Below, one piece after another: positions 620 through 24,976 of a stretch of 33,216 bases of DNA. A program made the translations under genes and the position numbers. The notes under the pieces are model-generated. The model was not told the DNA's origin. It searched no databases and saw only the letters and a list, made by a program, of their open reading frames with translations. Source of the stretch: a virus (Duplodnaviria > Caudoviricetes); the IMG/VR virus record IMGVR_UViG_3300011335_000331, positions 1 to 33,216 of that record. One strand, given 5' to 3'. Numbering within the stretch: position 1 is the stretch's first letter; each line of letters begins with the position of its first letter.

Positions 620-653
620 CACCTCGCGGCGTAACAACCGCGAGGTGGTTTTT
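620..653 (+). terminator. Rho-independent terminator
   Basis: Perfect 10-bp stem cacctcgcgg (620-629) / ccgcgaggtg (638-647) followed by gttttt. Confidence 0.8.
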
Positions 654-664
654 AAGGATTTGAT

Positions 665-15981: not shown

Positions 15982-16129
15982 AAATCCTCCGATCTTTAAT
16001 TGTTAAGAACGATACACTTTTGCGCTCAAGGCACGACTTGCACTTCCAGATGCGGCGGGTGCCTTTGGTAATCTTGACTAGCTTGTAACCGGCCTCGCGG
16101 CGGCAGGATTGGCAGACGGGGGCGATCAT
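15974..16129 (-). CDS. Zinc-ribbon mini-protein (51 aa; not in ORF track)
   Basis: MIAPVCQSCRREAGYKLVKITKGTRRIWKCKSCLERKSVSFLTIKDRRIYG*; two CxxC pairs; overlaps both neighbours. Confidence 0.7.
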   Translation of the reverse strand: MIAPVCQSCRREAGYKLVKITKGTRRIWKCKSCLERKSVSFLTIKDRRIYG

Positions 16130-16296
16130 TTCCGCACCTGCTTGATGGTTGGCACTCCCTGCACTTGCTGGCGGTAACGCCGGATCGTGGCGGCAACATC
16201 GGTTTTTGCCACATTGGTTGGAATAAATGGGAACTCAATAATGTAGATTTTGCGCTCGCGTAAATAGGCTATGGCGGCTTGCAGTTTGTCATTCAT
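16126..16296 (-). CDS. Hypothetical protein (56 aa; not in ORF track)
   Basis: MNDKLQAAIAYLRERKIYIIEFPFIPTNVAKTDVAATIRRYRQQVQGVPTIKQVRK*; ATGA overlaps at both ends; RBS gagga. Confidence 0.7.
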   Translation of the reverse strand: MNDKLQAAIAYLRERKIYIIEFPFIPTNVAKTDVAATIRRYRQQVQGVPTIKQVRK

Positions 16297-18009: not shown

Positions 18010-18019
18010 GATGCCTCCG

Positions 18020-18109
18020 TTATTCCAGCGAAAAAAGTAAAACTACGAAAATCCACGTTGCTGCAAACAGTCCAATTCCGAGCAAACAATCCAATATGAT
18101 CTGTTTCAT
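18020..18109 (-). CDS. Membrane mini-protein (29 aa; not in ORF track)
   Basis: MKQIILDCLLGIGLFAATWIFVVLLFSLE*; ATGA overlap with the upstream gene; fills the gap before the ERF RBS. Confidence 0.65.
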   Translation of the reverse strand: MKQIILDCLLGIGLFAATWIFVVLLFSLE

Positions 18110-18483
18110 TCTTGCCCCTTGTCATCTGCAATGTCTTGCGCCATTTCCTCAACCATGTCGCTGTCAGCCAAGTGCTTTTTAAGCATTTCCTGCACCTTGT
18201 CAAACATTTTGTCGATGCGGTTTGATAATGCAAACTTGTCGGTGCCGAGCGTGGCCACCAGCATTTCGAGCGCGTAACTGGTGTCGAGTTCTTCGACGAT
18301 GTATTCGTAAAGGTCAAACTCAGCGCGCCCTGTTTTGGGGAAGCGACCGTTGTCGAGGATTTCCTCAACGATCGTATCCAGAGCTTCTGCGCGGTCATCG
18401 TCTGTGATTTCGCAGGCTTGACGATTAAGCGGGTAGCATTTCTTGCAATCGTCTGCACCGCAATTGCAACGCTCGGCGCTCAT
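18106..18483 (-). CDS. Acidic hypothetical protein with N-terminal CxCGAxDCxxC cluster (125 aa)
   Basis: MSAERCNCGADDCKKCYP followed by an acidic helical body; coupled overlaps. Confidence 0.7.
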   Translation of the reverse strand: MSAERCNCGADDCKKCYPLNRQACEITDDDRAEALDTIVEEILDNGRFPKTGRAEFDLYEYIVEELDTSYALEMLVATLGTDKFALSNRIDKMFDKVQEMLKKHLADSDMVEEMAQDIADDKGQE

Positions 18484-18899: not shown

Positions 18900-18975
18900 C
18901 TTGTTTCTCCGTTTGATTGCCAGACTCGCTCTGGCTGCGTATTCCAAAACCCCCGCGTGAACAGGGGCAGGAGAA

Positions 18976-19107: not shown

Positions 19108-19152
19108 TTTGTTGCTCCTGTAAAGTTTTGTTTGCAATCCGGTATGGAAAGG

Positions 19153-19181
19153 ATAATAATGACTACCGCAACACTTTGCAA
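19153..19181 (-). promoter_or_regulatory. Leftward early sigma70-type promoter (PL-like)
   Basis: On the - strand TTGCAA (19181-19176), 17 nt, TATTAT (19158-19153), in the AT-rich divergent intergenic region. Confidence 0.7.
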
Positions 19182-22418: not shown

Positions 22419-22689
22419 GAAAAAGTGGATGCAATCGGTGGCCGAGCTGGGCTGCATCGTCTGTCTGCAAGCGGGATTTGGCTATGTTCCATGCTGCGTT
22501 CACCACATCCTGGAATCTGGCCGGAGGAAAGGTCATCTGCATACCATTGGGCTTTGTCCAGGCCATCACGCCTCTGGATTAAATACCGAGAAAGTGGTCA
22601 GCCGACACCCCTGGTTGAAAGAGTTTGAGAGACGTTACGGTACCGAAAAAGAACTGTGGAAAAAGACATGCGACGCGCTGCGAGGGTAG
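22405..22689 (+). CDS. ref: Ref-like (RecA-dependent) HNH nuclease
   Basis: MTKAEKKWMQSVAELGCIVC...VHHI...TIGLCPGHH...FERRYGTEKEL. Confidence 0.75.
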   Translation: MTKAEKKWMQSVAELGCIVCLQAGFGYVPCCVHHILESGRRKGHLHTIGLCPGHHASGLNTEKVVSRHPWLKEFERRYGTEKELWKKTCDALRG

Positions 22690-22952
22690 ATTCTAATCAC
22701 ACTGAAATTGTCAAAGTCTTTAGGCAATTGGGCTGTTCGGTGCTTTCTCTGGCTGCGTTGGGTAAAGGAGTGCCTGACCTGCTGGTGGCCACACACGGTA
22801 TCACATGGCTTGTGGAAGTAAAGGCAGGCAAGGGTAAGGAAAACGCTCTGCAAACCGCGTGGGGGGCTTCGTGGCAAGGCTCAAGGGCATTGGTGCGGGA
22901 TACTGAAGATGTGGAATTATTGGTCAAAAGGATGTTGACGAGCAGATTTTGA
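22668..22952 (+). CDS. PD-(D/E)xK nuclease (VRR-NUC-like, putative Holliday-junction resolvase)
   Basis: MRRAARVDSN..EIV, GKGVPDLLV, LVEVK and Q..W motifs. Confidence 0.8.
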   Translation: MRRAARVDSNHTEIVKVFRQLGCSVLSLAALGKGVPDLLVATHGITWLVEVKAGKGKENALQTAWGASWQGSRALVRDTEDVELLVKRMLTSRF

Positions 22953-22963
22953 GAGGTTATTCT
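22935..22963 (+). promoter_or_regulatory. sigma70-type promoter heading the late/packaging block
   Basis: TTGACG (22935-22940), 17 nt, TATTCT (22958-22963). Confidence 0.7.
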
Positions 22964-22970
22964 GCAATTT

Positions 22971-23048
22971 GCGCTGATCTCCTCCGTGAAGCGCCCCCCG
23001 CTAAACGGCGACTTGGATGTCGCGGGCATCCTCCCGGCGGTCGCCGTT
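22971..23048 (+). ncRNA. Structured late leader / candidate small RNA with anti-Shine-Dalgarno loop
   Basis: Hairpin gcgct/agcgc with a ctcctccg loop, a C6 linker, then a 9-bp stem aacggcgac/gtcgccgtt enclosing a ggatgtc/ggcatcc hairpin. Confidence 0.5.
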
Positions 23049-23062
23049 GCTATTGAGGTTCT

Positions 23063-24976
23063 ATGCCCGAGTCTGTAAATGCCCTAGAGCAATATTACCG
23101 TGACCTCGGGCCAGCGACCGCTAACCCTAATTTTCTGGCACAAGGTCGCAGGGCAAACGTGGCGCAGCGGTCAATGCCAGGACCAACAATGCAGGCAGCC
23201 AACACCCAGCTCGCAAAAGAATTTAGCAGCATGGGGGATCGTGGCGCAATACCGGATCTCATCAACCGCGGATTAATTGCCAACACCGCAGGTCTGCCGG
23301 TTGATCTCTTGAATACTGTTTTGCAATCCCTTGGACTGGGTGCAGAACAACCCGTTGGCGGTTCGGATTCAATTCGTCGGGCGCTGGAATATTACGGGTT
23401 ATCGTCAGACACCCAACGACCGATGCTTGAGACTCTTGCCGGACTGACCCCGCCAAAGGCTGTTATGGGAGCAGCTCGGGCAGCAGGACAAGGAGCAGAA
23501 GCTGTAGGCAGGGCGGCGGCTCCGGTGGCTGGGCAGGCAATTGAGAATTACATGGTGCAATCGGGTTCTGTATTGCCGGTGGTTAAAATGGGCGGCGGTA
23601 ATTGGGTGAACAATTCTGTTGAAAAATCATTAGAAAACATAAAAGGTAATCTTATGGATTACCCTCGACCATTTTATGGTGCTCCGGATCATCCTGCAAA
23701 TATTGCAACTATTGCAACTAATAATTGGGTTGATAAACAACTTACAAATTATGTAAAAAATCAAATGGGTACGGCTGGTGATCCAATAACAGCGTTAGCA
23801 GAAAAAGGAATCTTGCATTTTGAGCCAGGCGCCACTAGTAGAACTCAATTGCCAAAAGAACTGTCGGCAAAAGTATCTCGCAGAATGTTAGATATGCCGG
23901 AAGAAAACACAGCTGTATCAAACCTTGCTAAAACATGGGAAAACTATTCTGATTCCGCAATTACTGGCGCTCCATATAGACTTCAATTGCCAATGGTAAC
24001 GAAAGAAACTGCAAATCAAGAATTAAGTTTGTTGGGCGGAGATTTTGCGGTAAAAAATCCTAATGCGTTTGCATATGCAATGAATCGTGGGGCCGATACA
24101 CAAGGTCTTGGCTTCAATAAATTATATGAAGAAATAAGAAATGCAACTTATTCCGGAGCTTCCCCGGCCAATAATTTACTTCCTAAAAATTTACAAATAA
24201 AACCAGAGTCACTTGAAAGGCTGTCTGTTCCGCAAGCGGTAGAGCGGGTAGCAAAAATAAATAAATGGAAAGCGTCCGAACAAATCAAGGCTGATTTAAA
24301 CCATTCTAAAAACGAAGCAACAATAATTGTAAAAGAATACCCAAATGAAGGTATGAATTTAGTTAGATTAAAACTTCCATCTGCTGAAATTCAACCTAAC
24401 AGAGACATAGCAAACAAAAGTTTAAAAGATGCCTTAAATTACGAAGGCAGAAAAATGAATCATTGCATTGGTTCGTATTGCCAAAAAGTAGCAATGCAAG
24501 ACGGAACAGAGATTTATTCCTTAAGAGACAAAAAGGGAATTCCTCATGTAACAATTGAAGTTGAATCTTTTAAAATTCCTTACAAACCAGGTGAAGCGCA
24601 AAAATTAGCAGATGCACAAGGTTTAACTGGCGATGATTGGAATCGTTATGTTAACTTAAAAATAGCAGAAGGAAAAGAAACGGCAAATAGTGCAATTAAA
24701 TCAATACAAGGAAATTCAAATCAAAAACCAGCGGAAAAATATTGGCCAGCAATACAAGATTTTATAAATTCCAGAAATTGGATGAGCGCAAGAGATTCTT
24801 ATAAAGTAGGTTTAATCAACAAAAGTGATTTAGTTGATGAATTCACAACTGACCAATTACAAAAAATGGGTAAAGGTGAATTTATTTCAAATAAAGATCT
24901 TAAATTGTTTAGAGCTAACAATCCTGGCGCTGCCAACCACGACGGTTGGGCAGATAAAACGCCACGAACATTTTAG
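23063..24976 (+). CDS. 637-aa protein with injection-protein-like N-terminus and C-terminal PcfJ-like domain
   Basis: L.YEG..M.HCIG.Y...IYSLRD..G.PHVTIEV...I..IQG..N..P is the PcfJ-like pattern; Gly/Ala-rich amphipathic N-terminus (AGLPVDLLN...PVGGSD). Confidence 0.7.
   Translation: MPESVNALEQYYRDLGPATANPNFLAQGRRANVAQRSMPGPTMQAANTQLAKEFSSMGDRGAIPDLINRGLIANTAGLPVDLLNTVLQSLGLGAEQPVGGSDSIRRALEYYGLSSDTQRPMLETLAGLTPPKAVMGAARAAGQGAEAVGRAAAPVAGQAIENYMVQSGSVLPVVKMGGGNWVNNSVEKSLENIKGNLMDYPRPFYGAPDHPANIATIATNNWVDKQLTNYVKNQMGTAGDPITALAEKGILHFEPGATSRTQLPKELSAKVSRRMLDMPEENTAVSNLAKTWENYSDSAITGAPYRLQLPMVTKETANQELSLLGGDFAVKNPNAFAYAMNRGADTQGLGFNKLYEEIRNATYSGASPANNLLPKNLQIKPESLERLSVPQAVERVAKINKWKASEQIKADLNHSKNEATIIVKEYPNEGMNLVRLKLPSAEIQPNRDIANKSLKDALNYEGRKMNHCIGSYCQKVAMQDGTEIYSLRDKKGIPHVTIEVESFKIPYKPGEAQKLADAQGLTGDDWNRYVNLKIAEGKETANSAIKSIQGNSNQKPAEKYWPAIQDFINSRNWMSARDSYKVGLINKSDLVDEFTTDQLQKMGKGEFISNKDLKLFRANNPGAANHDGWADKTPRTF

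Follow-up and report, generated by a model that had tools for sequence, protein, structure and literature searches.

A conserved structured leader RNA with an anti-SD loop at the predicted start of a phage packaging operon

The leader RNA locus and its predicted fold

The window, by which we mean the whole stretch of 33,216 nucleotides analysed here, is a virus record of 98% completeness with a lambdoid layout. Its leftward recombination operon carries erf, an exonuclease gene and ssb; also present are a Cro-like gene, O/P-like replication genes, NinB, a Ref-like nuclease and a Hjc/VRR-NUC-like endonuclease. The rightward operon comprises a 637-aa gene of unknown function, DUF6321, a ParB-methyltransferase, terminase, a P22-like portal, scaffold, coat, tail and lysis genes. 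We found no match to an integrase, CI, N or Q among the 49 window proteins and 25 further proteins, all 74 of which were scanned against PHROGs for N and Q. The leader RNA that is the subject of this report sits between the endonuclease gene and the 637-aa gene (Table 1).

Other features of this genome were seen as well. The 637-aa gene shows a weak PcfJ-like match at 456-501; its N-terminus is conserved, whereas in relatives its length varies (about 405-485 aa). Close to where the left operon starts lies a 125-aa cysteine-motif gene (18106-18483, minus strand) that is present in 11 of 11 compared carrier genomes and in the relative G011; it is the most universal early gene among this phage group and had no PHROG or Atlas match. 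A probably unannotated gene for a 29-aa hydrophobic peptide (18020-18109, minus strand; in 8 of 9 near-complete carriers) ends at the erf RBS. Within the structural operon, a strong intrinsic terminator (-20.8 kcal/mol; about 620-655, plus strand) follows the head gene at 190-612 and is identical in G011. Divergent promoter-like sites, TTGCAA-17-AATAAT on the plus strand and TTGCAA-17-TATTAT on the minus strand, overlap before the Cro-like gene (19131-19181).

Table 1. Coordinates of the leader RNA, its flanking features and one candidate target in the window
Feature	Position	Strand	Basis or remark
RBS of erf, ACGGAGG; most consistent candidate early target	18014..18020	-	candidate only; specificity putative
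Hjc/VRR-NUC-like endonuclease gene, upstream neighbour	22677..22952	+	different endonuclease-like gene there in most relatives
-35 hexamer TTGACG, sigma70-type promoter	22935..22940	+	equivalent promoter in 57/61 copies
-10 hexamer TATTCT	22958..22963	+	predicted +1 at 22970-22971; 17-nt spacer
P1 hairpin GCGCU/AGCGC, predicted 5' end, short weak stem	22971..22994	+	97.6% paired; 1/4 pairs changes on both sides
P1 loop GAUCUCCUCCGUGA, anti-SD core UCUCCU at 22978-22983	22976..22989	+	loop conservation
Predicted pseudoknot 5' strand CCCGC	22997..23001	+	complementarity, alignment
P2 5' strand	23004..23012	+	7/9 pairs change on both sides
P3 5' strand	23015..23019	+	5/5 pairs change on both sides
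Predicted pseudoknot 3' strand GCGGG, inside P3 loop	23022..23026	+	variable pair C-G 51, U-G 7, U-A 3 of 61
P3 3' strand	23027..23031	+	alignment
P2 3' strand	23040..23048	+	no U-tract behind in window (3 U in 8 nt)
SD UGAGG of first downstream gene	23054..23058	+	sequence
First downstream gene, 637 aa, unknown function	23063..24976	+	at least 5 other gene types at same place in relatives

An earlier note on this sequence had placed a TTGACG-17-TATTCT promoter here with a start near 22970, and both sites lie as it described. Taken alone this promoter is not above chance, as the window contains 24 promoter-like sites compared to 17.0 ± 4.0 in shuffles. Among the 61 copies of the leader RNA that we collected (see below), 57 carry a -35/17 nt/-10 promoter in the same register, built from 12 hexamer combinations; the other four are truncated upstream (two) or have a poorer -35 (two). 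The distance from the -10 hexamer to the first G of P1 is 6 nt in 53 copies and 7 nt in four, the window being one of the four. From this fixed register the RNA is predicted to begin at P1 or one base earlier; it spans 71-83 nt. The note called the promoter late, which holds for its position; its timing is read from that position only. In a lake metatranscriptome (X1; 8% of words), contigs on the genes of relatives lay mostly from about 23740 onward and were deepest on scaffold and coat; none of the X1 contigs fell on the leader RNA, and contig form cannot reveal RNA ends or small RNAs.

The fold that the note had read from the window, a first hairpin gcgct/agcgc followed by a 9-bp stem with an inner hairpin, is present as P1, P2 and P3. 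Two further elements that it pointed out, a C6 run and a second uccuccc, do exist in the window but recur in only 6 and 9 of the 61 copies, respectively; what is kept at the former is the motif CCCGY, a predicted pseudoknot strand, and the latter lies outside any hairpin loop. The fold of the window sequence alone is not above chance (z -0.09; mean z -1.07 over 21 homologs), and it is lifted above chance by conservation and covariation in the 61 distinct homologs. We aligned 53 copies with MAFFT, having set aside 8 near-duplicates from the 61; in this alignment 97.9% of 1215 cells at paired positions were able to pair, compared to 29-52% in slid controls. Changes on both sides were seen in 14 of 23 pairs (shuffles 8.5) and in 127 cells (shuffles 32 ± 7), and 0 of 500 shuffles reached either value, a comparison that gives no probability because related sequences can beat shuffles. 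RNAalifold recovered P2 and P3 unaided and missed the short P1. The covariation check that the note had proposed shows P2 and P3 to covary; in P1 one pair in four changes on both sides.

We found in addition a pseudoknot that the note had missed: in all 61 copies the CCCGY motif upstream of P2 is complementary to an RCGGG motif within the P3 loop. The helix that the two would form is nearly invariant, with one variable pair. We treat the pseudoknot as predicted rather than proven because its support consists of perfect complementarity and few compensatory events. In the knot domain the linkers differ between copies in both length and sequence and hold no conserved unpaired bases, a freedom that would fit a role of shape. 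A U-tract (at least 5 U in 8 nt) follows P2 in only 7 of 61 copies, and the discrete species of about 80 nt that the note had envisaged finds no terminator behind P2 in the window (3 U) or in 54 of the 61 copies. An opposite-strand reading, with AGGAGA as an RBS or a CsrA-type GGA loop, was rejected since most wobble pairs of P2 and the knot work on the plus strand only and the promoter is conserved on that strand.

Copies, neighbours and loss of the leader RNA

The 61 distinct copies occur in lake-type phage contigs and were found by pattern scans and at loci fetched through neighbouring proteins. Thirty are close copies, sharing the loop or stems of the patterns, and 31 are divergent, found via neighbouring proteins or the inner hairpin. 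Sixty loci have an upstream endonuclease 81-100% identical to the query; the knot motif was present at 55 of them and absent from 3, the other 2 being truncated; at loci where endonuclease identity falls to 70-75%, model R1 matched 0 of 20. The leader RNA was found behind two different upstream genes. As a rough pattern, the first downstream gene is of the DUF5856 type in 37 copies, the 637-aa type in 6, DUF6321 in 5, ParB-methylase in 3 and another type in 10 (n=61). Carriers also differ in their head, replication (O/P or primase) and recombination (erf/exo or sak4/cas4-like) modules. Because flanking, head, replication and recombination genes all differ among carriers, the leader RNA is best described as a module tied to its promoter.

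Searches beyond this phage group returned little. A single copy was found on a contig of 3.1 kb that had been assigned to the bin of an uncultured Nitrosomonadales genome; this is a weak hint to the host because the contig may be mis-binned. Model R2 had no match beyond contig L302 in samples of 150 family and 150 order genomes around the MAG holding that contig, searched with strict filters. The leader RNA accounted for 1 of 30 matches in a GTDB pattern scan, blastn of the window region and of a divergent copy against 50,697 deposited phages gave only chance matches of 26-50 nt, and stem-free patterns found no homolog outside this phage group.

The record closest to the window by blastn cover (46%), the 100%-complete G011, still has the promoter and, at +1, a stub of 4 bp, while the loop and knot are absent (L339 just after 2806; L486 about 16120-16220). 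G011 also keeps the head module and the same strong terminator inside the operon. The leader RNA can therefore be lost, as judged from this one complete close relative. Just before the ParB-methyltransferase gene of G011 lies a parS-like palindrome.

CUCC hairpins in the distant relatives L423-L451 were considered as homologs and rejected (best R2 E-value 0.41; mostly terminator-like). In L414 (9865-9995) and L415 a different, longer multi-hairpin leader precedes the DUF5856 gene, with a C-rich loop hairpin near the +1 of a TATAAT promoter; it was not matched by R2 and is possibly an analogous RNA. In the more distant phages L425-L445, a -10-like hexamer stands about 6 nt before the DUF5856 ATG, right after a strong terminator, and this gene looks leaderless.

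The CUCC loop and its possible role

The P1 loop contains CUCC in 60 of 61 copies and CUCCU in 55, in agreement with the proposal of the earlier note that it exposes a conserved anti-SD motif, and CUCC(U) is the only conserved unpaired motif in the leader RNA. The longer motif CUCCUCCG was found in 39 of 61 loops overall and in 9 of the 31 divergent copies, for which no loop-based pattern had been used in the search; the loop's CCG extension shows the same counts (39/61 and 9/31). In the window, the loop GAUCUCCUCC matches the 16S tail GAUCACCUCC of two genomes of the candidate host family at 9 of 10 positions. The predicted probability that CUCC is unpaired is moderate (mean about 0.70-0.74; >0.8 in 15 of 61 copies).

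We compared the pairing of the loop with RBSs at orthologue-anchored starts in 22 carrier contigs. The mean pairing energy of each contig's own loop was -9.0 kcal/mol for the left operon (110 RBSs), -7.9 for the replication operon (97) and -6.9 for late genes (122; p=3.9e-4). A generic 16S tail likewise favoured early over late RBSs (-7.0 vs -6.0 kcal/mol, p=4.1e-4), and early-gene SDs are stronger than late-gene SDs in these contigs. The early bias of the loop is thus real but follows SD strength. The view that early RBSs pair better than late ones is correct for these means but not for the best duplexes of the window, the top two of which involve late genes (11092, -17.5 kcal/mol; 8289, -16.8 kcal/mol; compare erf, -14.4 kcal/mol).

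The reading we favour, tentatively, is that of a stable leader-derived anti-SD decoy which would broadly dampen strong-SD mRNAs in trans. It starts from features seen directly in the copies, namely the sequence, the promoter register, the covarying P2/P3, the complementary knot strands, the CUCC loop and the independence from flanking genes; all functional steps that follow are ones we infer from them. The conserved structured RNA of about 80 nt at the predicted start of the packaging-operon transcript would persist as a stable, abundant leader, with P1 at +1 shielding its 5' end and the pseudoknotted P2/P3 block acting as a nuclease barrier that stands in for a terminator. Since the knot block would replace a terminator in this proposal, free RNA would come from decay of the long mRNA or from partial termination. 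The exposed CUCC loop would then compete with 16S rRNA for GGAG-type SDs, broadly and scaled by SD strength. Because early SDs are stronger than structural-gene SDs, translation would tilt to late genes by default rather than by gene-specific design, and possibly away from host mRNAs too. The individual targets of such a loop are candidates only.

Speaking for the decoy are the fixed start register, the covariation, CUCC as the only conserved unpaired motif, the match to the 16S tail, the independence of the module, the lack of a cis partner and the stronger early SDs. Several points count against it. The free RNA is itself postulated, and at least 5 U follow P2 in only 7 of 61 copies. The CUCC core is only 4-6 nt long, P1 is weak and the accessibility predicted by folding is moderate. 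With a sigma70 promoter and no recognisable Q-type regulator, transcription may begin as soon as infection does; the packaging promoter may be active early and then be amplified by replication. The near-invariant knot helix would be needless for a pure barrier and hints at a protein or tertiary contact, and the loss in G011 also weighs against the decoy. Doubtful, in our estimate, is the more far-reaching view of a pseudoknot-capped 16S-tail mimic from the packaging promoter as an RNA-only device for translational re-weighting in a phage without a recognisable antiterminator or sigma factor, by which strong-SD host and early mRNAs would be dampened and weak-SD structural genes would escape.

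The near-invariance of the knot helix would also suit a cis-acting 5' leader, the main alternative and a possible if rather unlikely one, in which P1 and the knot would either make the long packaging-operon mRNA more stable or recruit a protein that adjusts how the first gene is translated. Such a protein could be host S1/Hfq-like or phage-encoded, and CUCC would be its site or take part in long-range pairing within the mRNA. The missing terminator in 54 of 61 copies, the position of the SD mostly within a few bases of the P2 end and the retention of just the +1 hairpin in G011 are consistent with this explanation, as is a weak SD-covering hairpin predicted 3' of P2 in many copies (mean 0.34-0.45). 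However, the downstream gene and its SD are freely exchanged, the loop did not favour the SD of the gene that follows it (residual +0.16, p=0.81, n=61; pairing probability 0.06-0.07, n=54), and no gene tracked the presence of the leader RNA when 9 near-complete carriers were compared to 4 non-carriers.

The place of the leader RNA also recalls a put-like RNA antiterminator, which would bind RNA polymerase leaving the promoter and carry it through the operon of about 25 kb in a phage without Q. A two-domain RNA of about 80 nt at +1 resembles HK022 putL in size and place (as far as the available text of PMC9378689 describes it), no Q or N match was found among the 74 proteins scanned with PHROGs, and the operon does contain a strong internal terminator at about 620-655. 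This explanation is nevertheless improbable: G011 lacks the RNA and keeps the same internal terminator and head module, which argues, from one genome, against an essential antiterminator; put needs specific bulged or unpaired bases and the knot domain here has no conserved ones; and the anti-SD loop would be left unexplained.

The earlier note had proposed a dedicated sRNA switch that pairs with specific early RBSs (erf/sak4 and replication genes) and turns them off, which we consider distinctly improbable. The RBS matches that it quoted exist (CGGAGGA at 15991 on the minus strand and 21774 on the plus strand; ACGGAGG at 18020 and ACGGAG at 18912, both on the minus strand). Comparison of own with foreign loops gave p=0.03 for all early genes, 0.007 for the replication operon, 0.27 for the left operon and 0.56 for late genes (uncorrected values from related genomes), so that one weak point for targeting comes from the replication operon but not from the left operon. 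The recombinase RBS appears to follow the loop: its CGGAGG is preceded by A in 15 of 16 phages whose loop has CCGU and by U in 7 of 8 whose loop has C/UCGA (Fisher p=1.8e-4), and a single 11-bp loop match was found in G017. Yet 17 of the 71 informative sites within the 110 nt that include this RBS separate the loop groups nearly as cleanly (balanced accuracy 0.88 or more; RBS site 0.91), as do 5-54% of sites in 15 analysable genes by the same measure, and the rule is broken by L557 and L551; the apparent co-variation of loop and target is no stronger than shared descent gives. A genome-wide search of 13 genomes found no conserved long antisense site, the generic 16S tail has the same early bias and the loop extension is kept in only 9 of 31 divergent copies. 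Taken together, these results retain from the proposed early-to-late switch a conserved structured RNA at a promoter with an anti-SD loop, but give no support to a dedicated aim at early genes.

A ligand-sensing riboswitch or self-cleaving ribozyme is very improbable, since a compact predicted pseudoknot just 5' of the SD is set against the absence of conserved unpaired bases for a pocket or active site (the knot linkers vary), unrelated downstream genes, no Rfam match and no conserved alternative fold over the SD among the copies.

Relation to known RNA systems

The Rfam scan suggested by the earlier note gave no match at the leader RNA, either in the window (E up to 5) or in 10 relatives (E up to 10), which holds also for the cuckoo/ar14 and RF02278 models. 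6C RNA consists of two hairpins with C-rich loops; here the C6 run occurs in 6 of 61 copies and is predicted to be paired in the knot, and no Rfam match was obtained. Judged from its sequences, the leader RNA is a real new phage RNA family without an Rfam match. In the literature we found neither the leader RNA nor the architecture of an anti-SD hairpin at +1 joined to a predicted pseudoknot domain described; in Fremin 2023 (PMC10690425) there was no match in 3 of 6 supplements, those that were readable, the alignment archives lay outside the search and an earlier listing there is possible.

The published systems are compared here as the available parts of their reports describe them. CU-rich anti-RBS loops act in a betaproteobacterium (PMC5688073), and the Burkholderia toxic small RNAs of RF02278 (ncS03, ncS05, ncS27 and ncS62) are 57-92 nt long with many predicted targets (PMC5688073, PMC4603805). 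The leader RNA shares with them an unpaired CU-rich stretch complementary to RBSs, in the form of CUCC in 60 of 61 P1 loops. The RF02278 RNAs are, however, host-encoded and made of two simple hairpins and a terminator (PMC5688073, PMC4603805), whereas the leader RNA is phage-borne, has one CU loop and a predicted pseudoknot, and is mostly without a terminator (at least 5 U in 7 of 61 copies).

With cuckoo/ar14 RNAs (PMC4615179) it has in common an anti-SD motif in a hairpin loop, variable stems and the question of global or specific repression. Cuckoo RNAs, as far as the available text goes, are repeated hairpins each with CCUCCUCCC; here there is one loop in which only CUCC is kept, together with a knot domain, and adjacent hairpins (two or more) with CCUCCUCCC loops were not found, the second uccuccc being present in 9 of 61 copies.

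A transcript of a late promoter can become an sRNA, as reported for StxS (PMC7547250). As in StxS and the lambdoid pR'-tR' region, the leader RNA would be a short RNA from the start of a late transcript, and StxS is able to act in trans. StxS belongs to a temperate phage and needs termination at tR' and antitermination by Q, according to the available text of PMC7547250; the window, by contrast, has no Q match, no integrase or CI match and no consistent terminator, so that neither a terminator after the leader nor a Q gene upstream was found.

HK022 put (PMC9378689) is similar in being an RNA of about 70-80 nt with two structured domains directly after a phage promoter and a tertiary fold, and the leader RNA, at 71-83 nt from the predicted +1, agrees with it in size and place. 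Put works for early promoters, and specific bases in it bind the beta' zinc domain; the available text of PMC9378689 describes no anti-SD loop. The leader RNA is absent from the complete relative G011.

The defining features of cuckoo, RF02278 and StxS-type RNAs are thus absent from the leader RNA, which would nevertheless, should the trans model be right, function in the manner of the anti-SD sRNAs. Because it is small and synthesisable and comes with natural loop variants and one natural loss variant, it would allow a direct test of whether an anti-SD loop acts globally or picks its targets, a question that the available text of PMC4615179 leaves open for cuckoo-type RNAs. The leader RNA may also indicate how expression is biased to late genes in lambdoid-like phages that lack a recognisable Q.
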